From a virus: DNA of 64,000 nt. The position numbers were made by a program, and so were the translations under genes. The notes under the pieces are model-generated. The model was given only the letters and a program-made list of their open reading frames with translations, did not search any database and was not told the DNA's origin. Position 1 is the stretch's first letter. Each line of letters starts with the position of its first letter. Location: positions 1-64,000 of the IMG/VR virus record IMGVR_UViG_3300020442_002635. One strand, written 5' to 3'. Shown here piece after piece: positions 1 through 16,719 of the stretch.

Positions 1-128
1 ATCAGATTGCCGTGAAGATAAACAGAGGAAGTGTTAGTTTCCTTGTCAATCGTTACCTCAGTGTTACCAGATTTCCAGTTCTTGTTAGACTGAACAGCGG
101 CACACATTTGGGATTCGATCTTACGCAT
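1..128 (-). CDS. hypothetical phage protein, 3'-truncated by window edge (MRKIESQMCAAVQSNKNWKSGNT...)
   Basis: ATG at 128 lies downstream of repeat copy 1; frame is open to the window edge; hand translation. Confidence 0.6.
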   Translation of the reverse strand, partial: MRKIESQMCAAVQSNKNWKSGNTEVTIDKETNTSSVYLHGNL

Positions 129-192
129 GAGAAGTGAGTTAAAGTTTGGTTTGTTGTGTGGGTTGTGGGTTTACCCTTCGGGTGTCCCTCAC

Positions 193-221
193 ACTACTGG
201 GACACTTTAGAGGTGAGTAAC
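193..221 (-). repeat. 29-bp early-region direct repeat, copy 1
   Basis: + strand actactgggacactttagaggtgagtaac; minus consensus GTTACTCACCTCTAAAGTGTYCYAGTWGT. Confidence 0.95.
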
Positions 222-240
222 AATAATACTCAGAAACTAG

Positions 241-477
241 TCAAACATAATGTAATGCAAGGGCAATGATTTGATCATCCTTTACAATACGATTAGGGCC
301 AGTTTTCGTCTCGAATTGATGATAGATTGTGTTAGGATCTTCATTGTCCCAATACATTGCATCAACTAAATCAGAGCACATTTCACGAACTGTTTTAATG
401 CCTCGATAAGTTGCATTGAATTCATCAGCAAGAATAGTGAGAGCAGATGAGAATGTAAGTGCGTTTGTGTTATTCAT
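241..477 (-). CDS. hypothetical protein (78 aa)
   Basis: ORF track; ATG directly abuts repeat copy 2. Confidence 0.7.
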   Translation of the reverse strand: MNNTNALTFSSALTILADEFNATYRGIKTVREMCSDLVDAMYWDNEDPNTIYHQFETKTGPNRIVKDDQIIALALHYV

Positions 478-506
478 ACTACTAGAACACTTTAGAGGTG
501 AGTAAC
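478..506 (-). repeat. 29-bp repeat, copy 2
   Basis: actactagaacactttagaggtgagtaac; upstream TAA is 1 nt away, downstream ATG 0 nt away. Confidence 0.95.
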
Positions 507-507
507 T

Positions 508-702
508 TTAATCATCAAGAAGAATAACTTCGTATGATGTAAAATCAGGATAGCACTTTTCTACCCATTGTGATAGTTTATTGTTCTGTGATTTAATCCC
601 TTTGTGTGTCTTTGGCCTTGTTGGCATTGTCTTGTAAAATGTGATGATGTTTTCATCGTCGGTTGTTACATTGACGATGTAAGTTGCAGTTGTTGTGTTC
701 AT
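508..702 (-). CDS. hypothetical protein (64 aa)
   Basis: ORF track; ATGA-coupled to the upstream ORF. Confidence 0.7.
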   Translation of the reverse strand: MNTTTATYIVNVTTDDENIITFYKTMPTRPKTHKGIKSQNNKLSQWVEKCYPDFTSYEVILLDD

Positions 703-863
703 TCTTCTATAGTAACAGATTGAATCACAAAGTTAGGATTAAGTCGATTACATGTTGCAATCGCATCCTCTTTTGTTTCTTTGATGTAACCTAAACAATC
801 ATTCATAATCCAACCATTAGCACGATGAAATTGTCCGTGAAGAATGAACTTAGTTTCTTGCAT
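699..863 (-). CDS. hypothetical protein (54 aa, MQETKFILHGQFHRANGW...)
   Basis: Hand translation; start and stop overlap both neighbours. Confidence 0.65.
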   Translation of the reverse strand: MQETKFILHGQFHRANGWIMNDCLGYIKETKEDAIATCNRLNPNFVIQSVTIEE

Positions 864-1021
864 CAATCGTAAGGGAAGAAAGAAGATTTAGTGGAGTCAG
901 TTTCGTAAGGAATGGTAAAATCCTCACCAAACATTTCATAGTAAAGTTCACTGAAGATTGCAAAATCATCAGGGGTTTCACTGTTCCAGATCTTCAGGAT
1001 TTCAGAGTAAGTGTTGTTCAT
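863..1021 (-). CDS. hypothetical acidic protein (52 aa, MNNTYSEILKIWNSETPDDF...)
   Basis: Hand translation; ATG abuts repeat copy 3. Confidence 0.65.
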   Translation of the reverse strand: MNNTYSEILKIWNSETPDDFAIFSELYYEMFGEDFTIPYETDSTKSSFFPYD

Positions 1022-1050
1022 ACAACTGGGACACTTTAGAGGTGAGTAAC
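1022..1050 (-). repeat. 29-bp repeat, copy 3
   Basis: acaactgggacactttagaggtgagtaac; TAA 1 nt upstream, ATG 0 nt downstream. Confidence 0.95.
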
Positions 1051-1051
1051 T

Positions 1052-1282
1052 TTAATCATCAAGAAGTTGTGGATAATACTCCTCTACCTCTTCAATCAGT
1101 TCATCAACTGTATACGAATCATAATTGTTGCTCATGTTATCATAAAGAATGGCCATCATTGTTTTGATGTCCATGTCATCCAAGATCTGGTTAATCATTG
1201 CATCTTGGAGTGCATCACGGTCGATGATTTTGTCGTTGGTTTCAGTCATTTTTGTGTGAAGATAAGATTTGATAAGTGACAT
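1052..1282 (-). CDS. hypothetical acidic protein
   Basis: ORF track; true start may be the second Met (MTETND). Confidence 0.7.
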   Translation of the reverse strand: MSLIKSYLHTKMTETNDKIIDRDALQDAMINQILDDMDIKTMMAILYDNMSNNYDSYTVDELIEEVEEYYPQLLDD

Positions 1283-1286
1283 AAAC

Positions 1287-1514
1287 TCAGCACGATGCTG
1301 GCATGTATTGTTGTGGTTCAGTCAGGAAATCTGTGACTTCATAACCATGAATGTCCAGACGAGAATTGCACGTTTCAATCATCTCTTTTTTGTTGAACAA
1401 TCGCATCGACTGTGTGTCACCCTTGAACTTTAAAGTGTAGACAAACTTATCAGTCAAGATTGCATGAGGGCGAAACTCAACAACCATGGAATGACGCTTT
1501 GAAGTGAGTTGCAT
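1287..1514 (-). CDS. hypothetical protein (75 aa)
   Basis: ORF track; follows repeat copy 4. Confidence 0.7.
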   Translation of the reverse strand: MQLTSKRHSMVVEFRPHAILTDKFVYTLKFKGDTQSMRLFNKKEMIETCNSRLDIHGYEVTDFLTEPQQYMPASC

Positions 1515-1534
1515 TTAAAAAAACCAGTGAACTT

Positions 1535-1563
1535 ACTACTACAACACTTTAGAGGTGAGTAAC
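1535..1563 (-). repeat. 29-bp repeat, copy 4
   Basis: actactacaacactttagaggtgagtaac; TGA 5 nt upstream. Confidence 0.95.
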
Positions 1564-1568
1564 AATAA

Positions 1569-1712
1569 TCATCGCATAATAGGATTTACACCAATTACTT
1601 TAGCCTTAGGATTACGCGCAGTTGCTGTTTCCTTTGCGTCCTGATAGTTTGCAGCATGTACTTCTTCAGTGAAAACTTTGCCACCAACATACAATTTAAC
1701 TTCGTATTTCAT
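1569..1712 (-). CDS. hypothetical protein (47 aa, MKYEVKLYVGGKVFTEEVHAANYQDAKETATARNP...)
   Basis: Hand translation; tight gene packing. Confidence 0.7.
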   Translation of the reverse strand: MKYEVKLYVGGKVFTEEVHAANYQDAKETATARNPKAKVIGVNPIMR

Positions 1713-1713
1713 G

Positions 1714-1881
1714 TCACCAAATCTCCGTGAATCGTTTGTGAGTTGCCTTGGTCATTCTACCATCTGCCAACAGATTGTCGCAGACATTAACAAAGACTTG
1801 AAACTTTTCCTCTCTTGTGAGTGTGTCTGCTCCATCGCAATTCTTCATCACGTTGAGCATTTGCTTTTTAGATGTGATCAT
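1714..1881 (-). CDS. hypothetical protein (55 aa, MITSKKQMLNVMKNCDGADTLTREEKF...)
   Basis: Hand translation; ATGA overlap with the upstream ORF. Confidence 0.7.
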   Translation of the reverse strand: MITSKKQMLNVMKNCDGADTLTREEKFQVFVNVCDNLLADGRMTKATHKRFTEIW

Positions 1882-2087
1882 TTCTTGAAGTTTTTGTTGT
1901 GGAAATAAGCATCAATAATTTCTAAAATCTCACAGCATTCTTCTGCTACTTCTTCACTTACCAACACGCCATAATCTTCAACTGCTTCTGCAATTAGTTC
2001 TAATTGACGATCATTGAACATAAGTGATTTTTTTCTGATTGTTAACATATTTAACTGTGATTGTGTACCAGAGAAAAGTTCAGTCAT
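1878..2087 (-). CDS. hypothetical protein
   Basis: ORF track; start uncertain. Confidence 0.55.
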   Translation of the reverse strand: MTELFSGTQSQLNMLTIRKKSLMFNDRQLELIAEAVEDYGVLVSEEVAEECCEILEIIDAYFHNKNFKK

Positions 2088-2440
2088 CAGAGATAAAGAA
2101 ACGAACCGTAAGCATCACAAATGTGAGGATTGTCTGCTAACTGTGTGATAAGATAACGAACACCTTTTGCAGGTGCTTTGTATGATGCAGGTTTGTAACA
2201 TTCACCAGAGTTCTTATCAACGAACATCCAGCAGCTTCGTCCTCTGATTCTTCCCTCGTCACCAACAAGATAAGACCAGACTTTGATATACTTTCGACCA
2301 ACTTCATACTCAAGTTGAGTATAAACAGAATGACCAGATTCGATCGCATCGACTTTCCACTGATTGTTGAGCACTTCGATAAGTGCTTCGGTCAGGAATT
2401 GTGGTTTGGTTTGAGTTGCGATCATTTTAGTGTTGCTCAT
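2087..2440 (-). CDS. conserved hypothetical phage protein (GRKYIKV...FVDK..G.CYKPAS.KAPAKGVRY)
   Basis: ORF track; motif typical of a small T4-like phage protein family; ATG abuts repeat copy 5. Confidence 0.8.
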   Translation of the reverse strand: MSNTKMIATQTKPQFLTEALIEVLNNQWKVDAIESGHSVYTQLEYEVGRKYIKVWSYLVGDEGRIRGRSCWMFVDKNSGECYKPASYKAPAKGVRYLITQLADNPHICDAYGSFLYL

Positions 2441-2469
2441 ACAACTGGGACACTTTAGAGGTGAGTAAC
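2441..2469 (-). repeat. 29-bp repeat, copy 5
   Basis: acaactgggacactttagaggtgagtaac, identical to copy 3. Confidence 0.95.
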
Positions 2470-2474
2470 AATAA

Positions 2475-3371
2475 TCACCAGGTTTTTGCCATCAGAAAGT
2501 TAGCACGACTGAACTCTTCACGATCAACAACTTTGAACATGCCAAACTTGTTTGTGATAACATAACCTTCATGCAGTGTTTGCTCATCACCAATCACACA
2601 AATGATTTCATCACATTCTTTGATGAACATGAACAAATCATCCTTGATTGATGCAACGAGTTTCCACAATCTGATGACGTTGGCATCACAATCAAATTTT
2701 TCTGCAATTTCATTCTCATCCACGACATTCTCATGGCGAATGCAGTCATTGATGTGTTTTTTGATTTTTGTTGCTTTGGCAGGAGTTACAAACTCACATA
2801 GAGTAGCCATTTGTTTGGCAAATGCACAAACATCAGCAATATCCTCACGATCAGGATTCAAACTGCACTCAGGTTGCACGAAGTGGCATTCATCATTGCT
2901 GCACAGATTGTCAGTCAAAGGTGATGCAACTGCATTGCGAAGATCACCCTCAGCAACATAAACTGTGTGAGGTGCAATGATAATATCCTCAGTGATTACC
3001 TCAGGAAAGATGTAAGTGATCGTGTTGGGACGATAAGTAAGGCTACCACCATAACCAATAAAATCACCTTGAATGATAGAATCTGTGCGAGGAAGGCAAT
3101 CAAAGCAAGCATGAAGAATACGCGCAACTTTACCTTGATGGTTTTTGTCAATTTCTTCATGTGAATGATTGATTTTGATTTTTACTTTGTTGAAGACAGA
3201 TTTAGTGCCAACAAAAAATGTACCAGTCGCAGGATCTGTGCCCCAAACAATAGCAGGAGCACCATCCATCTTGGTTGAGATAATACTATCAGACTCAGAG
3301 AACCAGTTAAGAACTGACAGATCTCCAGTCAGGATAGAATCTTCAGGGTGTTCGATGTGTGTGTTCTTCAT
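2475..3371 (-). CDS. DUF6267-like protein with ATP-dependent ligase/nucleotidyltransferase-like motifs (298 aa)
   Basis: KMDGAP (KxDG), IQGD, HEGYVI, FKVVDR. Start moved to ATG 3371 (MKNTHIEHPED), which abuts repeat copy 6; the ORF-track 5' extension crosses a terminator. Confidence 0.75.
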   Translation of the reverse strand: MKNTHIEHPEDSILTGDLSVLNWFSESDSIISTKMDGAPAIVWGTDPATGTFFVGTKSVFNKVKIKINHSHEEIDKNHQGKVARILHACFDCLPRTDSIIQGDFIGYGGSLTYRPNTITYIFPEVITEDIIIAPHTVYVAEGDLRNAVASPLTDNLCSNDECHFVQPECSLNPDREDIADVCAFAKQMATLCEFVTPAKATKIKKHINDCIRHENVVDENEIAEKFDCDANVIRLWKLVASIKDDLFMFIKECDEIICVIGDEQTLHEGYVITNKFGMFKVVDREEFSRANFLMAKTW

Positions 3372-3400
3372 ACTATTGGGACACTTTAGAGGTGAGTAAC
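3372..3400 (-). repeat. 29-bp repeat, copy 6
   Basis: actattgggacactttagaggtgagtaac. Confidence 0.95.
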
Positions 3401-3414
3401 ATTTATATCGACAT

Positions 3415-3440
3415 AAAAAAAGAGGGTAATGATACCCTCT
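3415..3440 (-). terminator. Rho-independent terminator
   Basis: Minus strand AGAGGGTA-tcat-TACCCTCT followed by a T run, just after stop 3448. Confidence 0.85.
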
Positions 3441-3447
3441 CTTCTTA

Positions 3448-3612
3448 TTATCGATCAGTGGCCATGTAGAAAGCCTTGTCTGTGATTGCATTCATCACAA
3501 GGGAAAGATCCTCTTGGAGTTTCTTAACCTCAAACTGATGAATCTGCCAACGAACTTTGATGTCTTCGATGTAATCTGCGCGAGACAGGAGAACTTCGGG
3601 ACGTTCGGTCAT
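3448..3612 (-). CDS. hypothetical protein (MTERPEVLLSRADYIEDIKVRWQIHQFE...)
   Basis: ORF track with start moved to ATG 3612, because the GTG at 3633 overlaps the repeat. Confidence 0.7.
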   Translation of the reverse strand: MTERPEVLLSRADYIEDIKVRWQIHQFEVKKLQEDLSLVMNAITDKAFYMATDR

Positions 3613-3631
3613 GCGTTGAGTTGCTTGGTAC

Positions 3632-3660
3632 ACTACTAGAACACTTTAGAGGTGAGTAAT
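3632..3660 (-). repeat. 29-bp repeat, copy 7
   Basis: actactagaacactttagaggtgagtaat; TGA 4 nt upstream. Confidence 0.95.
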
Positions 3661-3664
3661 AATA

Positions 3665-3904
3665 TCACACAGGAAGTTTGGCAACTGATTTACCCTTACT
3701 GTGCTTCGCAATAAAGTTCAGTGCTGACTTACGATTGCGACAGATCTTTAACTGCTTGCCCTGATGAATCACCACCAGTTTAGTATCACTGCCAGCAATA
3801 GGTATGGCAGCATACATCCTAGGATCATCATATTTGCCCATGATAAATCCCTCTTCGATAGGCTTGGGTTCTAAAACAGATCTTTTAGTTTCTGCAATCT
3901 TCAT
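3665..3904 (-). CDS. hypothetical protein (79 aa)
   Basis: ORF track; ATGA coupling. Confidence 0.7.
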   Translation of the reverse strand: MKIAETKRSVLEPKPIEEGFIMGKYDDPRMYAAIPIAGSDTKLVVIHQGKQLKICRNRKSALNFIAKHSKGKSVAKLPV

Positions 3905-4104
3905 CCCCAGTTCTCCATAAACTCCTCCAAAGTGTAACCATCATCTGTGCTAGTTTCTTCTATCAACTCCTCCAAAGAATAGTTTTGAAGTTCTTCACGA
4001 TATTCTTCTGTACTTTGATCATTTTCAGGATCAAAATCATCATGGCAGAGATAATCCCACTCTGCACATAATGCATTGATAAGTTCAGCTCTTGTATAAT
4101 TCAT
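3901..4104 (-). CDS. hypothetical acidic protein (67 aa)
   Basis: ORF track; ATGA coupling to the helicase stop. Confidence 0.75.
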   Translation of the reverse strand: MNYTRAELINALCAEWDYLCHDDFDPENDQSTEEYREELQNYSLEELIEETSTDDGYTLEEFMENWG

Positions 4105-5312
4105 CGACGAACCTCACTAATAGCAGGTTGACCTTGGTTGAACACGACATCAACAACTGCCTGAACTTTACGAGCAGTGCTGATACCTACAGTATCATAT
4201 GTAGGGATGCAAACAAGACCAAAGGTCTTAGATTCACCACCCAACCTGATGACACGACCAATCGACTGACTGATACCAATGTAGTCCATGTTACGCATGA
4301 AGATAACAGCTTCAAGACCACTGACGTTGATACCCTCAGACAGAATACTGTGGTGGATAACAACAAACTTTTTGCTAGAGTCTTTGCCCCAAGCATTCAG
4401 AGTCTCGAAGAATGTCTCACGATCAACCTTACGTCCATCAATGATTGCACCTGTCTTAGATGTGATCGTCATCCAAGAATAGCCACGCTGATACAACTCA
4501 GCACAGAAATCAGACTGAGAGATAAGACCCACAATCTGCTTGGTAGTACGAGCACAAATGAGAGTTTTGTTGATGTTGTTCTCATCAATCGTTTCAAGAA
4601 GATTGTCACAATCCTCTGCATACATGACTTTGCGACCTTTGATGAGATCCAGTTTCTTGACTACAACTTTGGGAGGAAGAATGTAACCACCTTCAACAAG
4701 CTCAGGAGCAGGAACATTCACCAGAACCTGACCATAAACATCAACCCAATTCATCCCAGGTTTCTTAGGAGTAAGAGAGTGCTTAGGAGTAGCAGTGAAG
4801 AAATAGCAACGATCAGAATCAGCAGCAAAGTATTCTGTAGCAGTGAAAAAGTTTCTCTGCACAGAGTTATGTGCTTCGTCAAAATAGATCGTATTGACCT
4901 CAACATCTGCCTCCATGATACGGTGCAGGCTATGATATGTAGTGAAAATAACTACATTTTCACCCATAGTACGAGCACAATTGACATAAAGGTTAATCTT
5001 TTCTGCGTTAGTTGTGCTGGTATAGTGTGTCTCACCACTATGAACGTGCATCACATGCAGATAAGGATCTGCATTGTTAGGATCAAGAACTTCCATGAAC
5101 TCAGAGCACAATTGTTCTGCCAACAAAATGCGTGGAGCAACAACAACTGTGGTGGTGCCATTCTTGATAGTATCATGGCGACGTTTTGTGTCCATGATCA
5201 TTGTCAGAGTCTTGCCACCACCAGTGGGTACAATCATCTGACCTTTGTTGTATGCAAGCATACGATCAAGGATGCGATTCTGATGGGGACGAAGAGAAAT
5301 AGTCACGTTCAA
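4101..5312 (-). CDS. superfamily II DEAH-box helicase (type III restriction ResIII-like)
   Basis: LRPHQ (Q motif), PTGGGKT (Walker A), DEAH, TAT, LSEGINV, QSIGRVIR; start may be GTG 5306. Confidence 0.92.
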   Translation of the reverse strand: MNVTISLRPHQNRILDRMLAYNKGQMIVPTGGGKTLTMIMDTKRRHDTIKNGTTTVVVAPRILLAEQLCSEFMEVLDPNNADPYLHVMHVHSGETHYTSTTNAEKINLYVNCARTMGENVVIFTTYHSLHRIMEADVEVNTIYFDEAHNSVQRNFFTATEYFAADSDRCYFFTATPKHSLTPKKPGMNWVDVYGQVLVNVPAPELVEGGYILPPKVVVKKLDLIKGRKVMYAEDCDNLLETIDENNINKTLICARTTKQIVGLISQSDFCAELYQRGYSWMTITSKTGAIIDGRKVDRETFFETLNAWGKDSSKKFVVIHHSILSEGINVSGLEAVIFMRNMDYIGISQSIGRVIRLGGESKTFGLVCIPTYDTVGISTARKVQAVVDVVFNQGQPAISEVRR

Positions 5313-5333
5313 GTGGTTTGATACCCAAAGATA

Positions 5334-5369
5334 ATAATAGCACCCTTACAGAGGATTGTAAAGGGTGCT
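5334..5369 (-). promoter_or_regulatory. sigma70-like promoter within a stem-loop, upstream of the helicase
   Basis: Minus TTTACA-N17-TATTAT; inverted repeat agcacccttaca/tgtaaagggtgct. Confidence 0.7.
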
Positions 5370-5381
5370 GGGGGTGCTTAT

Positions 5382-5410
5382 ACAACTAGGACACTTTGGA
5401 GGTGAGTAAC
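5382..5410 (-). repeat. 29-bp repeat, copy 8
   Basis: acaactaggacactttggaggtgagtaac; TAA 1 nt upstream. Confidence 0.93.
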
Positions 5411-5411
5411 T

Positions 5412-6023
5412 TTAATTGCTCATTCTTTTGTTTACACGTCCAAGAATTTTTGTTCTTCCTTTTGCATCAGGATTCTGGCCTGTCTCTTTCTTATACTTTG
5501 CAGTTTCCTGATCCTTAAATACACTCTTCAGATACTTTTCACCTTCTCCTCTAATCTTATCACGTTCTGCTCTTGTCTTACCTGATGCTTTCTGTGGTTT
5601 GTAGTTAGGATTAACTGCTGCTTTTTTCTTCTTAGAGAGTAACTGTTTTGCAGTAGGAGTTTCTTTCTTTTCAGGTGCAGGTTTGCCACCTTTCTTTGCA
5701 GCAATTCTTGCTTGTGCTGCTTTCTTTCTTTCTGCCTTTACCTTATCTGCATAAGATTGTTTAACCTCAGCAGAACCTCTTTCTTTCTCAGGTTGTTGCT
5801 CTCTGGTAGATGCTTGACGTTGCTGACCAATATCTTTTCTGTCTTTATATGATTTTGCTGGCACCATCTTACCACCACCAGCAGCCTTCATTCTTCTCTT
5901 TTCAGGTTCAGACTTTCTACGATCTGCACCAACTCTACCACCTTCGCCAGACTTTTTGATCTGGGATGATCCCATCACATCCTTATCATAGGCTTCAGTA
6001 ACAAATTGCGCGAACGTTTTCAT
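5412..6023 (-). CDS. Lys/Arg-rich putative internal head protein with T4-type capsid-targeting N-terminus
   Basis: N-terminus MKTFAQFVTEA resembles the T4 internal-protein capsid-targeting sequence MKTYQEFIAE; late promoter ATAAATA at 6047-6053. Confidence 0.7.
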   Translation of the reverse strand: MKTFAQFVTEAYDKDVMGSSQIKKSGEGGRVGADRRKSEPEKRRMKAAGGGKMVPAKSYKDRKDIGQQRQASTREQQPEKERGSAEVKQSYADKVKAERKKAAQARIAAKKGGKPAPEKKETPTAKQLLSKKKKAAVNPNYKPQKASGKTRAERDKIRGEGEKYLKSVFKDQETAKYKKETGQNPDAKGRTKILGRVNKRMSN

Positions 6024-6046
6024 TGAAAGAAAGAATAACCTTTCAT

Positions 6047-6111
6047 TATTTATTACAATAAACCCCTATCGCTCAAAAGTCAAGCGATAGGGGTCACTTC
6101 ATCAACTGTCC
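6047..6111 (-). promoter_or_regulatory. composite promoter: late box ATAAATA, sigma70 TTGACT-N17-TATTGT within a 12-bp stem-loop, and an upstream dyad
   Basis: acccctatcgct/agcgataggggt inverted repeat at 6062-6094; dyad GGTCA-N10-TGTCC at 6092-6111. Confidence 0.7.
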
Positions 6112-6323
6112 TCTTCTTCCTCAGTCTTAACTTTATTAACTTTAGGGCCAATTTGCACACGATTCGTTTCATAGAACCATGCAACTCTTTCTCGCCTTGC
6201 TTGCATCAACATATCATATTGATCCTGCTGATCTTTAGTGAATCGAAAATCTTGAAGTTTCCAAGTCTTACGAAGTTCTTCAAGGTGAGACAGAACGTTG
6301 ACAGTTTCAGTAGGAAAGTTCAT
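6102..6323 (-). CDS. hypothetical protein (MNFPTETVNVL...)
   Basis: ORF track with start moved to ATG 6323. Confidence 0.75.
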   Translation of the reverse strand: MNFPTETVNVLSHLEELRKTWKLQDFRFTKDQQDQYDMLMQARRERVAWFYETNRVQIGPKVNKVKTEEEEDS

Positions 6324-6324
6324 T

Positions 6325-6462
6325 TCAGTAATCAATTTTAGAGTTGAGATAATCGTTCATATTGAAATCTTGTTGATCTTCAATCAAATCTTCAAGATCT
6401 TCACTAACATGGTCAAAATTGACCAGTTCTTCAATTTGTTGTTCAGTCAAATAGCAATCCAT
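6325..6462 (-). CDS. hypothetical acidic protein (45 aa, MDCYLTEQQIEEL...)
   Basis: Hand translation; follows repeat copy 9. Confidence 0.65.
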   Translation of the reverse strand: MDCYLTEQQIEELVNFDHVSEDLEDLIEDQQDFNMNDYLNSKIDY

Positions 6463-6477
6463 TTAAATGTGCCTTAC

Positions 6478-6506
6478 AGTAATGAAACAGTTTAGAGGTG
6501 AGTAAT
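6478..6506 (-). repeat. 29-bp repeat, copy 9 (most divergent)
   Basis: agtaatgaaacagtttagaggtgagtaat; TAA 1 nt upstream. Confidence 0.85.
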
Positions 6507-6507
6507 A

Positions 6508-6651
6508 TTATTTGACAAGGATTTTGATTTCCTTGCATCCTTGATCTTTTAGGATATTTTCCCAAAAGATTGCATCATCAATCTTCAAAAAAGTAGCACG
6601 TTGATTAGAAAAACCTTTTTTCTTAGGTTTCATGTAGTTTACTTCATACAT
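6508..6651 (-). CDS. hypothetical protein (47 aa, MYEVNYMKPKKKGFSNQRATF...)
   Basis: Hand translation; TAATG coupling. Confidence 0.7.
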   Translation of the reverse strand: MYEVNYMKPKKKGFSNQRATFLKIDDAIFWENILKDQGCKEIKILVK

Positions 6652-6917
6652 TATGGATCTTTGTGTCTGTACTGCTGTGATTTGTATTCATCAACATTAT
6701 AACTTCTTCGATTCTTCACATATTCTAGTTCATGCCAATCAAAATTGTAGCATACAAGTAGAATGTGATTTTTCTTATGAAATGATGCTCCATGATCATG
6801 ACACACTTTATCTTTCACACCTAGCTCGATACTAATACATTCATCACACTTAAAATACACCCAACCTTCGTGATTTTTCCATTTTACATAGTCATCAACC
6901 TGTGGGATGTATTTCAT
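6651..6917 (-). CDS. hypothetical protein (88 aa)
   Basis: ORF track; coupled to both neighbours. Confidence 0.75.
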   Translation of the reverse strand: MKYIPQVDDYVKWKNHEGWVYFKCDECISIELGVKDKVCHDHGASFHKKNHILLVCYNFDWHELEYVKNRRSYNVDEYKSQQYRHKDP

Positions 6918-7207
6918 ACAAATGCTGCCTCCAATGGATTAAGATTGAGTTGCATTGCAGTATAAGGGCGAGTATCAGAAATGTCTACCTGATCTCCACG
7001 CTTGGTGGAGTTAATAGGCGCATAATAGGTTCTCTGTTTTGTGTTGTAGAATCCCCAAATAGTTTTTGCAACAGTACCGCCGTTGAAATTGAATTTAGCA
7101 TGATTGCAACACCAAATAGATAAAATGTTGCGTCTGAATTCTTCAACCTCGTAAGTGTAGCCTTTAGGTGGTTCATGAATAAAATCAGGTGGGAGTTCCA
7201 GTGTCAT
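6914..7207 (-). CDS. conserved hypothetical cyanophage protein (97 aa)
   Basis: ORF track; coupled to both neighbours. Confidence 0.8.
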   Translation of the reverse strand: MTLELPPDFIHEPPKGYTYEVEEFRRNILSIWCCNHAKFNFNGGTVAKTIWGFYNTKQRTYYAPINSTKRGDQVDISDTRPYTAMQLNLNPLEAAFV

Positions 7208-7365
7208 TGCTCACGAACAATGCGAATGCGATCAGGACTGATACCATCAGCTAAAATTTCACTGTAGCGTTGACTTGCTTCAGCTTGGGTGAGACCAGTG
7301 TCATTCTTTTCGACAAGTGTCCAACCAGATGTTTCTAATTCTTCGATTCGATAAAGTTTTTCCAT
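7204..7365 (-). CDS. hypothetical protein (MEKLYRIEELETSGW...)
   Basis: ORF track with start moved to ATG 7365. Confidence 0.7.
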   Translation of the reverse strand: MEKLYRIEELETSGWTLVEKNDTGLTQAEASQRYSEILADGISPDRIRIVREQ

Positions 7366-7369
7366 TAGA

Positions 7370-7609
7370 TTAAGTGGTAAATTCCTCAACAATTCCAGAC
7401 TCAAGTTCTTCTGCTAGTGCATAAGTGCGTGACTTTATGATATTCTCACGCAAATTTGCATAGTATTGTTGATTGAAACCATCGTCAGTATCGGTGATGA
7501 GATTAAAACATTCCTCATCACTTTCAGCGATTACATTCCACAACCCACCATATTCACTGGTAGGGAAAGGAATGAAGTGATCTACAATGTAGAAGAACTT
7601 TTGTGTCAT
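7370..7609 (-). CDS. conserved hypothetical protein (FYIVDHFIPFPTSEYGGLW)
   Basis: ORF track; upstream promoter. Confidence 0.8.
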   Translation of the reverse strand: MTQKFFYIVDHFIPFPTSEYGGLWNVIAESDEECFNLITDTDDGFNQQYYANLRENIIKSRTYALAEELESGIVEEFTT

Positions 7610-7632
7610 TGTTTTGAACAGATTACCTCTTA

Positions 7633-7661
7633 ATTATATCAGGAGCAGAAGAACTCTGCAA
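7633..7661 (-). promoter_or_regulatory. sigma70-like early promoter
   Basis: Minus TTGCAG-N17-TATAAT. Confidence 0.6.
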
Positions 7662-7764
7662 GATAGTAGTCAACTGTGACTTCAAGTGCTGCTGCTTCGG
7701 CTTCAACCTGCGCCCAGAACTCTTCAGCAATTTGTTGCTCTTCCATTTTGTCGTAAATGTTCAT
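7639..7764 (-). CDS. hypothetical acidic protein (41 aa, ...EAEAAALEVTVDYYLAEFF)
   Basis: Hand translation; ATGA coupling. Confidence 0.7.
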   Translation of the reverse strand: MNIYDKMEEQQIAEEFWAQVEAEAAALEVTVDYYLAEFFCS

Positions 7765-8141
7765 GCCATCAGTGCTCCTTCTGGAATAATAACCCTTTCA
7801 GGTTGTTTGTTGTCATCAAACTGGTGCATATCATAACACACCCAACCTGCACTAGTGAAGATGTAAGAGAATTCTTCACCATCAGAGAGAAACTGTTCGC
7901 GAGTTTCATCATAACGAGGAGGACAATTCTCACCACGCTCAGAGTAATACTCTGCACGATTTTCATCGCCCCAAGCAGCGGACATGTCACCACCATCAAT
8001 CAACTCAGAAGCAAGATCGCGTGAATTGTAGTGAGTCTTCAGGATGCGACCCAGCCACTCAGGATAACCATCCCAGTGGTGGTAAGAAGACACAATGCTG
8101 CCATCTTTAAGTTCAATGCCGACTCGTGATCGTGTTGCCAT
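7761..8141 (-). CDS. conserved hypothetical phage protein (YHHWDGYPEWLG motif)
   Basis: ORF track; MATRSRVG...YxHWDGYP motif is widespread in phages. Confidence 0.85.
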   Translation of the reverse strand: MATRSRVGIELKDGSIVSSYHHWDGYPEWLGRILKTHYNSRDLASELIDGGDMSAAWGDENRAEYYSERGENCPPRYDETREQFLSDGEEFSYIFTSAGWVCYDMHQFDDNKQPERVIIPEGALMA

Positions 8142-8160
8142 GTCAGTGATGTGTGCTTAC

Positions 8161-8189
8161 ATAACTGAGACACTTTAGAGGTGAGTAAC
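8161..8189 (-). repeat. 29-bp repeat, copy 10
   Basis: ataactgagacactttagaggtgagtaac; contains the stop codon of the Mom-like gene. Confidence 0.93.
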
Positions 8190-8825
8190 TTTATTATCAG
8201 GGTTTTTCCACTTCTCTTCTTTCCATTTAACGTCCAACTTCTTGTCAAATGTCATCAAGAACCTGTGCTTTTGACTTCTCTTGCGATACTCTCCCTCTAA
8301 ACCTTTACCACCACCTCTAGATTTTTTAGTGTAAGTTCCATCATCATTCAATACCCAGAAGTCAGCAACATTTGCTGATGTCATGCCATAGTATTTGAAA
8401 TTAGATGCTGCATAAATCACACCTTTGTGAAACTTACCATCAGCATATGAAAGTATGGCCCTTACATCAACATCTTTGCGAAATTGTTTGATTGCTCTTG
8501 ATACAAACCATGATGTGATGTTGTGCTCTTCTCCTTGAATATCTGGATGAATGCACAATCTAGACAGTTCAAATAATCCATCCTGTTCATCTCTTTCCAG
8601 TCCATATGCAGATACAGCAATCTCAGGAACTGGAATACCTGTGAATACAATAGCACCAATACATGTACCCACAGGTCTTAAGATATAGTCAGGATCACCC
8701 TTGAATAGTGCATAATTATGCCCTGATCGAAATGTTTTAGAGTGATCCTTCAGATAATGATATGTAAGCAGTAAATGTTCAACTTCTTTTCTTTCTACTT
8801 TCTCAATATAATACTCGCTCTTCAC
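8175..8825 (-). CDS. Mom-like GNAT acetyltransferase (DNA modification family)
   Basis: YHYL, ELSRLC, SWFVSRAIK, ILSYAD..FHKGVIYAASNF motifs characteristic of the Mu Mom family. Confidence 0.8.
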   Translation of the reverse strand: MKSEYYIEKVERKEVEHLLLTYHYLKDHSKTFRSGHNYALFKGDPDYILRPVGTCIGAIVFTGIPVPEIAVSAYGLERDEQDGLFELSRLCIHPDIQGEEHNITSWFVSRAIKQFRKDVDVRAILSYADGKFHKGVIYAASNFKYYGMTSANVADFWVLNDDGTYTKKSRGGGKGLEGEYRKRSQKHRFLMTFDKKLDVKWKEEKWKNPDNKVTHL

Positions 8826-9254
8826 TCAACCTCCATCAACTTGACATCCTGCCAATGCACCACCAACAACACCCAAAGGTATAGCCCACCAGCGACCATC
8901 TCCACGCGATAATGCTGCACCAGCACCACCGCCAAGGATACCACCAAGGACAGAACCTTCTACACAGGAATTTTCATCAACACGACCCATGTTGGGATAT
9001 TCTTCTTCATATCTAATATCAGGAGGAATTGAAGGCACATGATGATTTCTGCAAGGAACTCTCTTTCTTCTGTGTTTTACATATCCACCAACCCATTGAC
9101 CATATTTGTTGTAATATCCAGGTTCATATATTTCTACATTCTTATAGCAATAGTTTTCGTATCGCACACTTCTTTGCCCTCTAATTACAGGGCCTCCAGC
9201 ATATGCAGGGACAGAAGTGGCACCAATCAGAAGCAAAGCAGCAAGAAGTTTCAT
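8826..9254 (-). CDS. signal-peptide protein with C-terminal glycine zipper (2TM)
   Basis: Hydrophobic N-terminus ending AYA; GSVLGGILGGGAGAAL...GVVGGALAG. Confidence 0.8.
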   Translation of the reverse strand: MKLLAALLLIGATSVPAYAGGPVIRGQRSVRYENYCYKNVEIYEPGYYNKYGQWVGGYVKHRRKRVPCRNHHVPSIPPDIRYEEEYPNMGRVDENSCVEGSVLGGILGGGAGAALSRGDGRWWAIPLGVVGGALAGCQVDGG

Positions 9255-9274
9255 GAATTCCTCTCAATAATAAC

Positions 9275-9332
9275 AATTTATATTAAAAAAGCGTCCCTGT
9301 CAAGGGACGCTGTGACACTTATTCTTTTGTCC
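9275..9332 (-). promoter_or_regulatory. sigma70 promoter whose -35 lies in the loop of a terminator-like hairpin, with an upstream dyad
   Basis: Minus TTGACA-N17-TAAATT; GCGTCCCT/AGGGACGC stem plus T6; dyad TGACA-N10-TGTCC at 9313-9332. Confidence 0.7.
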
Positions 9333-9468
9333 TTGCCTGTTGAACAAGATATTCAGCAAATTCTTCCATTTTTTCTGGATGAATTGCCCGAATATCATAC
9401 TGCTCTACCGCAATTTTCATAGACTCAATGTGTTCATGCTTAAGTTTTTTGTCTTTGGGTAGAGTCAT
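9319..9468 (-). CDS. hypothetical protein (49 aa, MTLPKDKKLKHEHIESMK...)
   Basis: Hand translation; AGGAG upstream. Confidence 0.7.
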   Translation of the reverse strand: MTLPKDKKLKHEHIESMKIAVEQYDIRAIHPEKMEEFAEYLVQQARTKE

Positions 9469-9526
9469 GGGCAATCTCCTGAATGTAGTGACATGCTAAC
9501 ATGTCATTTCACAATTAGTTAGCAAT

Positions 9527-9691
9527 TTAATCTTTTCTTTGGGATTGTGTTACAGGAGTTAATGGTTCAACCTCATCCATTTCTTTCCACACATTTTCAA
9601 AATCTGTGATATGCCAAGTCCCAAACTTCTCAGGGGAATACCAAAAGTCTTCCCAATCTTGTGGTGTGGCTTCAGAAATGTTAGCACTCAT
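9527..9691 (-). CDS. hypothetical protein (54 aa, ...ATPQDWEDFW...)
   Basis: Hand translation. Confidence 0.6.
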   Translation of the reverse strand: MSANISEATPQDWEDFWYSPEKFGTWHITDFENVWKEMDEVEPLTPVTQSQRKD

Positions 9692-9863
9692 CTTTCTTAA
9701 ACTGTTTACGACATTTTTTGACTTCTTTGAGTTCTTCTTTAATCATCTGATAAGCATCTTCAGAACTAATTCTTTTTGATAGTTCCATAGCACAGATGAC
9801 TTCAACTCTAGTACCAAAATGTTTGAGTGCTTCCTCAAAACAATTTAGTTCTTCATACATCAA
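9681..9863 (-). CDS. conserved hypothetical protein (cyanobacteria/cyanophage type, [12 protein letters not shown])
   Basis: ORF track; coupled to petF. Confidence 0.75.
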
Positions 9864-10150
9864 TAGAGTTCCTCTTCAGCTTCTGCTTTAATTACACAGT
9901 CACTGGTTGGATATGCAACACAGATCAATGCAAATCCTGCTTCAATTTGATCATCATCCAAGAATGATTGATCGCTCTGATCAACTGTACCTGACTCAAT
10001 CTTTGCTGCACATGATGAACATGCACCAGCACGACAGGAATATGGAAGATCTACACCTTGTTCTTCAGCAGCATCAAGAATGTATTGATCGTCCTCACAT
10101 TGAATAGTTGATTCGCCCTCAGAAGACTTGATAGTAATTGAATAAGTCAT
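9860..10150 (-). CDS. petF: plant-type 2Fe-2S ferredoxin (auxiliary metabolic gene)
   Basis: [25 protein letters not shown]...DQSFLDDDQ...[11 protein letters not shown]. Confidence 0.97.
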
Positions 10151-10371
10151 GTACCTTTGTTACTGTCAGAGATATTATATATCACAGGATGAATCTTGTC
10201 AATCTGAGATTTGAGTGATGTTTCTATTTCAAGAACAAGATCATGCAGTTCACGATTTTCTTTTTCTAATTCAACAACACGTTCAGTTAATGTTTCAATT
10301 TGGTTGTATAGATTGTCACTAACTGATAACTTTTTTGTTGGAGAAAAGAATTTTTGCACCCAGGTTAACAT
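10147..10371 (-). CDS. hypothetical coiled-coil protein
   Basis: ORF track; heptad pattern. Confidence 0.7.
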
Positions 10372-10394
10372 ACATTATTCTATACGATTATAGA

Positions 10395-10511
10395 TTATGT
10401 ATCCTCTGTTGTCTTATTTTCGTTAAGTTTTTTAACTGCTTCAATCACTTCAGGAGTTTCTTCCCACTCCCATGTATTTCCTTTACTATCTACAAATGTT
10501 CGTGTTGCCAT
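10395..10511 (-). CDS. hypothetical protein (38 aa, MATRTFVDSKGNTWEWEETPE)
   Basis: Hand translation; TAATG coupling. Confidence 0.6.
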   Translation of the reverse strand: MATRTFVDSKGNTWEWEETPEVIEAVKKLNENKTTEDT

Positions 10512-10897
10512 TAGTTCTCCTCAAATGAAAGGTTTGGGTTGTAACAAGAAAACAATTCATCACCAGCTTTAACATCGCGAGTTGTATAGTAATTCTGAGT
10601 CATATTAACTCCATCAACATACCACTCAACATTGAAATGTTCTCGTGAATGATTAAACAATGAACCAACACCAAATCCAATAAACAATTTCCCCTTTATA
10701 TTTGCAACATAACGTGGCAATTCAACTGCATCTGGTGATATTTCATCAGGATCGACGATTGCAATAGGACATTCTTCAATAAGTTCATACTGAGGAATAT
10801 CTTCATTAGCAAAAACTCCCCATCCTTGGATGGGAGATCGCTTCACCTGAATCTTTGGATTACGATATAGTTCAGTTTTATATACGCTATGGTTCAT
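10511..10897 (-). CDS. SET-domain protein-lysine methyltransferase
   Basis: SPIQGWGVFA.EDI, FNHS...N, TRDVKAGDELF..Y. Confidence 0.9.
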   Translation of the reverse strand: MNHSVYKTELYRNPKIQVKRSPIQGWGVFANEDIPQYELIEECPIAIVDPDEISPDAVELPRYVANIKGKLFIGFGVGSLFNHSREHFNVEWYVDGVNMTQNYYTTRDVKAGDELFSCYNPNLSFEEN

Positions 10898-11051
10898 TTC
10901 TCCCCAAGTTACGAATTTGTCGCTCTAGTTCATATTTTACAGGGTTTAGATGCCTGTAAATATAAGGTTTATATTCATTATCCTCCAAAAGGCTAACAAT
11001 ATTATTGATTTGTGTCAAGGCAGAGAATAACCTTTCAGCTTCAGTGATCAT
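10887..11051 (-). CDS. hypothetical protein (MITEAERLFSAL...KYELERQ)
   Basis: ORF track with start moved to ATG 11051. Confidence 0.65.
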   Translation of the reverse strand: MITEAERLFSALTQINNIVSLLEDNEYKPYIYRHLNPVKYELERQIRNLGRNEP

Positions 11052-11503
11052 TTGTATATACTCTTTGTGCGGCAATGAGAGTATCATATGGAATCCATGC
11101 AGGATCTTCTTTATCAAACTGAACCTGAACTTCAGTGATTACTTTCTCAAGATACCTATTATATGTTTTTCTAGTGTTCTTTACTGGTGCAATTGGATTT
11201 GTCATTTTTTTCATTTATTATGTCAGACGAAGACGATAGTCTTTTAATTTTTGAATCAATCGTGAATGATTTACAACACCAGGATCAATTTGTTCCCTTG
11301 CTCTAGCTACATAATGTTCTGACATTGTTTCTAATGCTTTAAGGACGTGATCGACTTCTTGGAGTGATAGATTCATATGAATTATGTGAGTGATTTGTAA
11401 ACTGCTTCAATGTGCATATGACCATGAAAATATCCTGCAACAATGACACAGAGAGTACAAAAGATAACTCCCAAAAACATCAGTACAGGGACATTATAGT
11501 TCT

Positions 11504-11701
11504 TTAGTGCCATCTTTTGGACTTGAGATATTTTAACATATCTGAACGAATATCCATCAGTTCATGATAACATCTTTGATTGTGAGCACACTGACGAAGT
11601 GCAGGATCTGGTTTGATTACAGACTCGATAAAGATGTCAAGACCACGATTCCATTTTTCTTGTTTAGATTCGTTGTCATCAATAGTGTACTGATCCTTCA
11701 T
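11504..11701 (-). CDS. conserved hypothetical cyanophage protein (65 aa)
   Basis: ORF track. Confidence 0.75.
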   Translation of the reverse strand: MKDQYTIDDNESKQEKWNRGLDIFIESVIKPDPALRQCAHNQRCYHELMDIRSDMLKYLKSKRWH

Positions 11702-11734
11702 TAAAACACTCCTGTTGAATCTCTTCGATATTTA

Positions 11735-11929
11735 TCACACAATTGCTTCCCAATTATCATCAGCTGATTCACTCATCCAAAAACTGTACTTGCCAGTGAT
11801 AGATGACAGAAATACCTGACCATCTTTACGTTGTTCAACACGACAAGAGTGGAGGTTATGCATCAAGTTAGCAAAACGATTTTTTGCTTTTGAGCTCTTC
11901 GGTTTTACACAAATGAATTCGGTCTTCAT
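11735..11929 (-). CDS. hypothetical protein (64 aa)
   Basis: ORF track; upstream promoter. Confidence 0.75.
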   Translation of the reverse strand: MKTEFICVKPKSSKAKNRFANLMHNLHSCRVEQRKDGQVFLSSITGKYSFWMSESADDNWEAIV

Positions 11930-11953
11930 ACTTTAATTAACCTCGACAAAGGT

Positions 11954-11982
11954 ATTCTACAGAGTTTTTAGGATGCTGTCAA
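11954..11982 (-). promoter_or_regulatory. sigma70-like early promoter
   Basis: Minus TTGACA-N17-TAGAAT. Confidence 0.75.
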
Positions 11983-12435
11983 GCGATTAGGGAAAGCAGT
12001 TCCTGATCCAAAAGATCCAGGTCCAAGTCCAAGATATGAGTGATAGAGTTTTACCTCCATCTCTTGGGCTTCAATCTCCCATGGTTGGTCGGAATAGTCT
12101 GTATGAGAGTGGTCTATGCCCCTCCAATAGCGTTTCTCTCCCCTATCTTTAAGATCACCCTTGACATGCTGATAAACGTGCCACAGTTCATGTAAGAGGA
12201 TGGTACTGTACTTATCAACACTGAGACGATTGTGCATCTCAATCTCAAACTCTCTTGGGCGAGAATCAGAATCCATCACAGTACACCATCCAAAGACACC
12301 TTCGCGAAGAAGTCCACGATGATTAACTGTAATGTCAAGTTTATGGCGTGGCAGATACTTATCTACAAACCAGTGAACAATGTCATCACATCGTTTACGG
12401 CTGTAGTTGTATCCACAAGTTTCAAGATAGAGCAT
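11968..12435 (-). CDS. zincin-like metallopeptidase (HExxH)
   Basis: LLHELWHVYQ plus downstream PWEIEA. Confidence 0.8.
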   Translation of the reverse strand: MLYLETCGYNYSRKRCDDIVHWFVDKYLPRHKLDITVNHRGLLREGVFGWCTVMDSDSRPREFEIEMHNRLSVDKYSTILLHELWHVYQHVKGDLKDRGEKRYWRGIDHSHTDYSDQPWEIEAQEMEVKLYHSYLGLGPGSFGSGTAFPNRLTAS

Positions 12436-12579
12436 TGAGAGTAACTGTTGTGACTCGTGTTCCCCACTGCATCATCCACATAAATGATGCAATAAAGATT
12501 AGTTTTTCAGTGGTGGTCATTCCTCCTCTGTGGTTATCCACATAGTTTAAGGTATCATGATCCATTTTTTGTCAAGAGT

Positions 12580-12629
12580 GTGCAGTAATCAAACTGTCCA
12601 TTGACATCTTGATTGTATTTTGTTAGTAT
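12580..12629 (+). promoter_or_regulatory. sigma70 promoter with upstream dyad for the plus-strand gene pair
   Basis: TTGACA(12601)-N17-TAGTAT(12624); GTGCA-N10-TGTCC at 12580-12599. Confidence 0.75.
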
Positions 12630-12653
12630 TCAAATCATCTATACCATATAATA

Positions 12654-13388
12654 ATGATCACTGTATATTGGTCTCCTTGGTATGCAGATAAGAAGACATA
12701 TGATGAAAACTATCTAACACACTATGGATTAGATAATGTTTATGCTGATCTTCTAGTGCATAAAGATCAATCAAATGCTAGAGATAACTTCTTTAATTGC
12801 TATGCATTTAAAGGTGCAATGAAGAATATGTATTGTCTTAGGAATCCTTACTCTGTTGATCTTCGATATGAGAATGGTAAATGTATTTCTAATGCACCAC
12901 CAAAAGCAATTTATGATCTTGCAATGACATCACAAGTCAAAGCTCCTTCAATGCAAGATGCACTGACGATTAACTATGGCGTCAGTTGGATATTCTTTGC
13001 TGATAAACCCCTACACATACAAACAATGCATCCATATATGCATGGGACAGAGGCAAGTAAGACATCATTTTATGTCCCTGGATCTTTTGACATCTCTAAA
13101 TGGTTTCGACCAGTTGAAACTGCATGTCAGTTATTTCCTGGTGAGAATACATTTAAGTCTGATGAAGGTGAGCCACTAATCTATGCAAACTTCCTGACTG
13201 ATGAGAAGATTCAATTCAAGAAGTTCTACCTGACTCAGGAAATCATTGATCATTCAATGAGTTGTATGAAACTCAAATACTTCAAGTCATTCAAGGCACT
13301 AAATTACTTGTATAAGATATTTGTTCAGAGTAAACTGAGAAATAAAATCCTGACTGAGATCAAGAAAAATGTTATTGAGGATGAATGA
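12654..13388 (+). CDS. hypothetical protein (possible dUTPase-like beta-clip fold)
   Basis: ORF track; C-x-A, VPGSFDISKWFRP, GEPL motifs; fold is an inference. Confidence 0.75.
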   Translation: MITVYWSPWYADKKTYDENYLTHYGLDNVYADLLVHKDQSNARDNFFNCYAFKGAMKNMYCLRNPYSVDLRYENGKCISNAPPKAIYDLAMTSQVKAPSMQDALTINYGVSWIFFADKPLHIQTMHPYMHGTEASKTSFYVPGSFDISKWFRPVETACQLFPGENTFKSDEGEPLIYANFLTDEKIQFKKFYLTQEIIDHSMSCMKLKYFKSFKALNYLYKIFVQSKLRNKILTEIKKNVIEDE

Positions 13389-15772: not shown

Positions 15773-15774
15773 GA

Positions 15775-16698: not shown

Positions 16699-16719
16699 TC
16701 ACAAAACCATAATACTGTA

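Follow-up and report, generated by a model that had tools for sequence, protein, structure and literature searches.

A candidate early start signal with a genome-private box, also used as a seam for cassette exchange, in one clade of T4-like cyanomyoviruses

What is the function of a 29-nt sequence that recurs ten times, each time in the orientation of the genes, between positions 193 and 8189 of a virus genome fragment? The fragment is IMG/VR record IMGVR_UViG_3300020442_002635 (88,416 bp), of which positions 1 to 64,000 are referred to here as the window. A preliminary description of the window had offered two non-exclusive models for the repeats, namely (a) a phage-specific promoter or operator unit and (b) a recombination junction at which repeat-plus-gene cassettes are gained, lost and shuffled. 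We propose, with a probability of about 0.6, that the element is a promoter-type early start signal specific to one clade of T4-like cyanomyoviruses and that it also serves as a seam for homologous exchange of cassettes. We infer the promoter activity, the RNA start site and any factor reading the element from the sequence. The recombination role is apparent from junctions in relatives, and it is neither exclusive nor site-specific.

A consensus search (up to 3 mismatches) returned 9 copies, all on the minus strand, compared with 0.00 expected from 100 shuffles. A tenth, more diverged copy at 6478 was found in register by repeat search and matches the 17-nt core of the element with 1 mismatch, which confirms the ten co-oriented minus-strand repeats described earlier. 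Searching the 17-nt core beyond the region of the preliminary description, across the whole 88,416-bp record, gave no copies other than these ten. The cluster is already under way at base 1 of the record, so further copies may lie beyond that base. The ten copies and the terminator that precedes one of them are as follows.

193..221, minus strand: copy 1 (29-nt core); upstream stop codon 19 nt away
478..506, minus strand: copy 2; the stop of gene 508-702 is 1 nt upstream, and the next base is the ATG of gene 241-477 (protein start MNNT)
1022..1050, minus strand: copy 3; the stop of gene 1052-1282 is 1 nt upstream, and the next base is the ATG of gene 863-1021 (protein start MNNT)
1535..1563, minus strand: copy 4; the stop of gene 1569-1712 is 5 nt upstream, and a 20-nt leader runs to the ATG of gene 1287-1514
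2441..2469, minus strand: copy 5; the stop of the DUF6267 gene is 5 nt upstream, and the next base is the ATG of the DUF7717 gene 2087-2440 (protein start MSNT)
3372..3400, minus strand: copy 6; the next base is the ATG of the DUF6267 ligase-like gene 2475-3371, and a terminator ends about 20 nt upstream
3421..3440, minus strand: terminator hairpin with T-run just upstream of copy 6, seen in the sequence and in the terminator scan
3632..3660, minus strand: copy 7; the stop of gene 3665-3904 is 4 nt upstream, and a 19-nt leader runs to the ATG at 3612
5382..5410, minus strand: copy 8; the stop of gene 5412-6023 is 1 nt upstream
6478..6506, minus strand: copy 9, the most diverged; the stop of gene 6508-6651 is 1 nt upstream, and a 15-nt leader runs to the ATG of gene 6325-6462
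8161..8189, minus strand: copy 10; the Mom-family gene 8175-8825 stops at a TAA within the repeat, and a 19-nt leader runs to the ATG of gene 7761-8141

The table of open reading frames (ORFs) bore out most of what had been reported on the surroundings of the repeats. The stop codon of the upstream gene precedes copies 1 to 9 by 19, 1, 1, 5, 5, 47, 4, 1 and 1 nt, respectively, and lies inside the repeat in copy 10; the distance is therefore 1-5 nt in 7 of 10 copies and exactly 1 nt in four, with an internal stop in an eighth. An ATG begins at the very next base in four copies (478, 1022, 2441 and 3372). The number of genes per interval, previously given as 1-6, is 1-7 by our count. All copies are co-oriented with the genes, and 10 of the 11 intergenic gaps of at least 30 nt within 1-8825 contain one, the sole long gap without a copy (6024-6101) being occupied by a terminator and a sigma-70-like promoter. 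Other junctions are mostly overlapping (ATGA type) or 1-4 nt apart; one of them, 7609/7639, is 29 nt wide and contains AAGAGG, which resembles a Shine-Dalgarno sequence. Since the long gaps are filled by repeat copies and the other genes are tightly packed, the repeats mark the heads of gene groups.

Two copies are followed by hairpins. Downstream of copy 1 is a 7-bp hairpin (GTGTCCC/GGGACAC), then a C/A-rich leader of about 65 nt (129-192) and an ATG at 128; downstream of copy 8 is a hairpin with a sigma-70-like promoter (5362-5334), then the helicase gene at 4101-5312. Copies 2 and 3 have identical upstream flanks. Within 466-1065, these two copies are alike past the repeat on both sides, the upstream genes ending in LLDD-stop and the downstream genes starting with MNNT; the shared flanks suggest a recent exchange or conversion between them.

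Megablast matched the region to T4-like Synechococcus myoviruses of the Kyanoviridae, with SynMITS9220M01, S-SM2 and Bellamy as the best isolates, and by these matches the window is a fragment of a T4-like cyanomyovirus (Kyanoviridae). The repeats lie in a hyperplastic region of small genes, as is typical for T4-like genomes. Recognisable genes in it encode a helicase (4101-5312), a DUF6267 ligase-like protein (2475-3371), a DUF7717 protein (2087-2440) and a Mom-family protein (8175-8825), and the remaining ORFs are small and were assigned to no family. The element is found well beyond this record: at least 104 IMG/VR stretches contain the exact 19-mer, and the core matches the 190-kb genome of SynMITS9220M01 at 12 sites, which share one strand and lie within 36.3-50.0 kb. 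In S-SM2, 11 copies occupy orthologous positions, such as those ahead of its DUF7717 and DUF6267 genes. Copies are confined to the small-gene region beside the helicase in the window, and likewise in SynMITS9220M01 and S-SM2.

The anatomy of the element was derived from three sets of aligned copies: the 10 of the window, 198 unique copies from IMG/VR contigs having the exact 19-mer, and 312 unique copies of all box types from relatives; the general layout came from an IMG/VR scan anchored on the shared core alone. The 29-nt unit described earlier is real as a core, and conservation extends past it, from about 9 nt upstream (A/T-rich, usually including the previous stop codon) to 6-11 nt downstream. 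Judged by these alignments, the full signal is about 45-50 nt long and the 29-nt repeat is its conserved centre. In the coding direction, the layout from 5' to 3' is an A/T-rich flank, GTWACT, a box of 5-8 nt, CTAAAGYGT-YCY-AKTAGT and then R-T-R-A. That each genome has its own version of the 5' half of the repeat had escaped the preliminary description. The box is CACCT in this window; the S-SM2 copies have the same 3' half and an entirely different, G-rich 5' box, and the core-anchored scan distinguished at least nine box types.

Each genome uses one box. A single type was present in 74 of the 76 contigs having at least two typed copies, and the 2 exceptions mix near-identical variants. The window and SynMITS9220M01 have an identical box although their genes are only ~72-78% identical, which argues that the box is kept by selection or homogenisation and not by recent common descent alone. 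A quick tree of one gene, that of the DUF6267 cassette, is at odds with box type: the label T1 needs at least 11 changes on well-supported branches, and the window DUF6267 gene is nearest, after its near-identical partner in L077, to genes that stand behind T2 and T3 boxes. The cassette tree being independent of box type, the box belongs to the genome and not to the cassette.

Several features connect the element with the beginning of genes. The first ATG of a long ORF falls exactly on the base after the 29-mer in 114 of 312 copies (37%), and in these, as had been claimed for the window, no room is left for a Shine-Dalgarno sequence. Offsets of 1-14 nt account for only 13 of the 312, and a second mode follows at 15-28 nt. 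The bases after the repeat are conserved whether they are coding or not, with a purine at offset 0 in 97%, T at +1 in 89%, R at +2 in 94% and A at +3 in 86%. The fixed ATGs are true N-termini: the Pfam match of the DUF6267 protein starts from residue 3, and that of the DUF7717 protein covers its full length. Leaders of 15-40 nt are G-poor and C/A-rich, and only 5 of 137 contain a Shine-Dalgarno-like word. Such G-depleted, C/A-rich leaders devoid of Shine-Dalgarno sequences occur at many loci, the one at 129-192 in the window being an example, and they suggest a Shine-Dalgarno-independent initiation of translation of the early genes.

At some loci, a strong intrinsic terminator ends 16-21 nt before the element and a gene lies directly after it. 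This is the case at 3421-3440 in the window, where the terminator is conserved in the relatives L077 and L002, and in at least three other contexts, namely L056, L089 and the equivalent loci of L035 and L067. With a terminator just ahead and the gene directly after, the RNA of that gene must begin within the element. Terminator-like hairpins within 100 nt upstream were counted at 10 of 192 unique copies (5%), compared with 2.3% of control positions. Within the core, TAAAGT is near-invariant (TAAAGC in most S-SM2 copies) and lies 11 nt ahead of the fixed ATG. No other TAnnnT word would keep the fixed ATG within the transcript. The spacing of TAAAGT is acceptable if RNA starts at the AG of AGTAGT, and long (11 nt) if the ATG itself is the start.

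The region also contains promoters of the host type. Perfect or near-perfect sigma-70 consensus sequences are present on the strand of the repeats at 10202-10174, 11982-11954, 9303-9275, 6083-6055 and 5362-5334, the first of which is a 12/12 match with a perfect TTGACA-17-TATAAT. Three units on the minus strand (9311-9275, 6083-6055 and 5364-5334) combine a G+C-rich terminator hairpin with a TTGACA-type promoter in the manner of promoter early stem-loop (PeSL) units, and the helicase gene is preceded by both a repeat copy (5382) and a host-type promoter. Textbook sigma-70 promoters on the same strand a few kb away indicate that the phage uses host-type promoters too, and that the repeat is of a different class.

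Exchange of genes at the repeats was followed in close relatives. We compared contigs with flanks of at least 90% identity and counted ~39 indel or replacement events. Both ends lie within 20 nt of a repeat in five or six of these, one end in 16 and neither in ~17. Exact repeat-to-repeat indels arose three times independently: a 685-bp cassette in L032 is absent from L022, a 463-bp cassette in L022 is absent from L032, and a 562-bp cassette in L044 is absent from L072. The cassette-less genomes retain a single chimeric repeat, in which the upstream flank is that of the first copy in the other genome and the downstream flank is that of the second. The crossovers fall within 36-42 nt of identity, and junctions of this kind are, on sequence grounds, the signature of homologous recombination, or of slippage, between direct repeats. 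One replacement is bounded by two repeats (L060/L090). A repeat-DUF6267-repeat unit is found at another position in L076, and copy 5 with its DUF7717 gene directly follows the helicase in L076, L001 and L020. The DUF6267 gene behaves as a mobile cassette and is flanked by repeats in many relatives.

UvsX/RecA is encoded by both complete relatives, SynMITS9220M01 and S-SM2. The copies are direct repeats that are identical over ~40 nt, in a phage family whose homologous recombination is very active. Model (b) holds up in relatives, though not exclusively: three exact indels and one replacement have the predicted breakpoints at the repeats, and many other indels lie away from them. In distant relatives, breaks per junction were not significantly more frequent at repeats (0.83 vs 0.76, Mann-Whitney p = 0.49), because nearly every junction of the region breaks. 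Pairs of neighbours that were both present on a contig had been separated in 47% of cases with a repeat in either genome and in 23% of those without, in a count whose cases are not phylogenetically independent.

These observations can be combined in a working model. In one clade of T4-like cyanomyoviruses, each early transcription unit of the hyperplastic region would be opened by the signal. The host RNA polymerase would initiate in roughly the final six bases of the repeat or at the next purine, using the TAAAGT of the core, the only TAnnnT hexamer that is positioned as a -10 element, and a phage factor that reads the private box may assist it. For about one-third of the downstream genes, translation would then begin at a fixed AUG with no leader or almost none, and for the remaining genes it would use short G-poor, C/A-rich leaders that have no Shine-Dalgarno sequence. 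The identical direct repeats of ~40 nt also serve as seams for the deletion, insertion and exchange of cassettes, for which a site-specific recombinase is not required. Model (a) fits the orientation and position of the element, the upstream terminators, the locked start codon and the conserved purine; its promoter and start site are predictions from these features.

A number of points weigh against this proposal. The element has no conserved -35: as noted in the preliminary description, the near-invariant TAAAGT is accompanied by no canonical -35, and the columns 17 nt upstream of it are unconserved in the 10 and in the 198 aligned copies. In a scan for the sigma-70 consensus, the diverged copy 9 was the only window copy to score (6518-6489, 9/12), and it did so through its private flank. 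Most S-SM2 copies read TAAAGC and lack the final T, a normally critical base of -10 hexamers. An RNA start at the fixed ATG would place TAAAGT at 11 nt upstream, longer than usual, and other TAnnnT words (TAGTRT, overlapping the ATG) would place the start past the ATG. Instead of leaderless translation, the locked ATG could partly reflect a constraint on the R-T-R sequence of the element. Enrichment of the core over control was seen in none of Syn9, P-TIM40, S-PM2, P-SSM2, Bellamy and S-RSM4, and this absence of enrichment in the six phages rules out the core as a general early signal of cyanomyoviruses. The recombination role is not exclusive, given that neither end is at a repeat in ~17 of the 39 recent indels, and among distant relatives all junctions of the region break often. 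A scan of metagenomes and metatranscriptomes with a conserved leader returned 14 DNA contigs and no informative transcript ends.

The private box invites a more specific proposal, which we regard as possible and advance tentatively. A phage-encoded specificity factor, delivered with the virion or made first, may read the box and steer the host polymerase, with at least nine orthogonal box-factor pairs among these phages. Incoming cassettes would then be re-addressed simply by recombination in the shared core.

Whether the element acts in RNA was considered from its folding. Nine of the 10 window copies fold no better than shuffled sequences, the predicted structures differ between copies, and Rfam gave no matches in 1-12500; the lack of a common fold and of an Rfam family removes attC-like and riboregulator readings. 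A structured RNA or attC-like fold was thus rejected, there being no common or stable structure in the ten copies. A three-frame stop module was rejected as well (stops in all three frames occur in just 3 of 10 copies), and so was the idea that the box imitates the 3' end of 16S rRNA (UCACCUC) or pairs with the core, given the unrelated boxes elsewhere and the absence of consistent compensatory changes.

An RNA-level signal could nevertheless operate in long early transcripts, either for processing or as a site of termination-reinitiation or translation start that separates cistrons. It would suit the stop codons 1-5 nt before the repeat in 7 of 10 copies with the next ATG at a fixed distance, the low frequency of upstream terminators (5%), so that read-through RNA would usually include the element, and the finding that several copies are less structured than shuffles, as expected for a ribosome entry site. 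We consider it unlikely, as there is no conserved fold or Rfam match, the gene follows directly even where a strong terminator sits 16-21 nt ahead of the element, box variants show by inspection no compensatory pairing with the core, and a host nuclease or ribosome needs no box that varies among phages of similar hosts. Alternatively, the element could be mainly an operator, at which a phage regulator shuts off or times the early genes, with the real promoters elsewhere or in the TAAAGT part alone. A strongly conserved private box suggests recognition by a protein of the same genome (the window and SynMITS9220M01 share theirs with genes only ~72-78% identical), one box type is used in 74 of 76 contigs, and the conserved bases cross the start codon, where translational repressors of the T4 type, such as RegA, act. 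On the other hand, no candidate for such a protein emerged, other promoter-like sequences are missing from those 30-50 nt gaps in which the repeat stands alone, and operator and promoter functions are compatible. A mainly operator role is rather improbable in our estimation.

The exact junctions might instead point to a dedicated recombination site of an integron-like or site-specific mobile-cassette system, whose recombinase would be encoded outside the fragment. Such a site would account for the exact repeat-to-repeat gain and loss, for the replacement between two repeats and for the repeat-DUF6267-repeat and similar cassettes at different positions in relatives. A tyrosine recombinase (PF00589) was found neither in the 88-kb record nor in SynMITS9220M01 or S-SM2, while all control genomes matched, and no serine recombinase was found in the window's own record, the only place searched for it; for tyrosine and serine recombinases, the earlier statement that the window encodes no recombinase holds for the whole record. 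There is no palindromic or attC-like fold, crossovers occur anywhere in the 36-42 nt of identity, as for homologous recombination, the copies are strictly co-oriented with genes and placed at gene starts, and many indels lie away from repeats. We therefore judge a dedicated site very improbable. A promoter of the T7 type, read by a phage RNA polymerase and suggested only by a resemblance, was rejected, no gene for such a polymerase having been found: PF00940 was not detected in the record or in the two complete relatives, in a search whose control set contained no member and whose negative is thus unvalidated. Cyanomyoviruses are not known to encode a single-subunit RNA polymerase.

By analogy, the closest described system is the PeSL cassettes of the T4-type phages RB49/phi1, T4/PST and KVP40/nt-1 (Arbiol et al., 2010, PMC2839356; Comeau et al., 2014, PMC4122927). 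A PeSL consists of a sigma-70-type promoter (-35, N17, -10) with a stem-loop just upstream and a Shine-Dalgarno sequence and start codon 3' of it, and homologous recombination between copies generates ORF indels, replacements and displacements (PMC2839356; PMC4122927). The window element resembles PeSLs in being a repeated, lineage-specific regulatory sequence between small early genes of a hyperplastic region, with indels at the copies. It differs in having no conserved -35, Shine-Dalgarno sequence or fold, in having an upstream terminator in just 5% of copies, in being partly genome-private and in a start codon that is often fused to the element. The classical PeSL architecture was rejected on account of the missing -35 and Shine-Dalgarno sequence and the rarity of upstream terminators, and the analogy drawn earlier with T4-type promoter-stem-loop elements fails in the same respects. 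PeSLs were reported to be sparse in cyanophage S-PM2 in a 2015 study (PMC4503421).

Integron attC arrays, the other analogy drawn earlier, share with the window the co-oriented short repeats between unrelated small genes and the gain and loss of cassettes at the repeats. The analogy does not hold further: neither a tyrosine nor a serine recombinase is encoded in the record, there is no integrase, no imperfect palindrome of the attC type and no single common promoter, and the junctions in the window's family resemble homologous crossovers. The T4 middle promoters, made of a MotA box and a sigma-70 -10, are alike in joining a host-type -10-like word to an upstream box that would be read by a phage protein in place of a -35. 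In the window, by contrast, the box abuts TAAAGT instead of lying at -30, the shared core and not the box is the most conserved part, and the factor that would read the box is hypothetical; motA and asiA are lacking in cyanomyoviruses, as are alt and modA/B (PMC2984593). In halovirus HF2, intergenic repeats of 29 and 58 bp were conjectured and then reporter-tested as promoters (PMC8707807). These are likewise short repeated intergenic virus sequences taken for promoters, but they belong to an archaeal virus, are of an archaeal promoter type and have no sequence relation to the present element.

A full-text literature search for the motif strings returned nothing relevant. Doron and colleagues reportedly described in 2016 a novel regulatory element for the early genes of the T4-like cyanophages Syn9 and P-TIM40, which is said to be widespread in genomes and metagenomes. 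That element is likewise reported to be a non-host-like early-gene signal, and the neighbourhood is the same, with small genes around the helicase. Syn9 and P-TIM40, however, do not have the CTAAAGYGT core, and the repeat of Syn9 at the equivalent place is different. The window element is at most a sister version of the reported one, from another clade.

Syn9 and Bellamy share their own intergenic repeat at the equivalent genomic place, hairpin included, made up of a GTGGCACA block, a hairpin and then a TCGTGTAT...AAGAGTCAAAGG block. From its placement, it may be the early element of their clade. Its positions are as follows.

L109 (Syn9), 10304-17068: Syn9/Bellamy repeat
L115 (Bellamy), 948-1010, 7609-7640, 10156-10188 and 10687-10725: Syn9/Bellamy repeat

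Three of the neighbouring genes deserve a brief description. The Mom-family gene (8175-8825, minus strand) matches Pfam PF25680 with E = 1.5e-18, which suggests a DNA modification function for its product. The DUF6267 protein (2475-3371, minus strand) carries, near residue 45, the KxDG motif that typifies nucleotidyl-transferase ligases. Gene 5412-6023 (minus strand) encodes a very basic, Lys/Ala/Glu-rich protein of 203 aa without a Pfam family and has its own terminator and sigma-70-like promoter; it belongs to the most syntenically stable gene pair of the region, the junction being retained in 46 of 52 relatives.

A 2010 review described early transcription in cyanomyoviruses as unresolved (PMC2984593). 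T4-like cyanophages are among the most abundant viruses of the ocean, and the proteins with which T4 retargets the host polymerase are missing from them. The element brings together properties that are useful in this respect, namely a shared core with a private box, one box type per genome, a locked start codon and cultured members with two different boxes, SynMITS9220M01 and S-SM2. The exact junctions between repeats provide direct sequence evidence of cassette-exchange seams in natural marine phages, hitherto documented mainly in coliphages and vibriophages.

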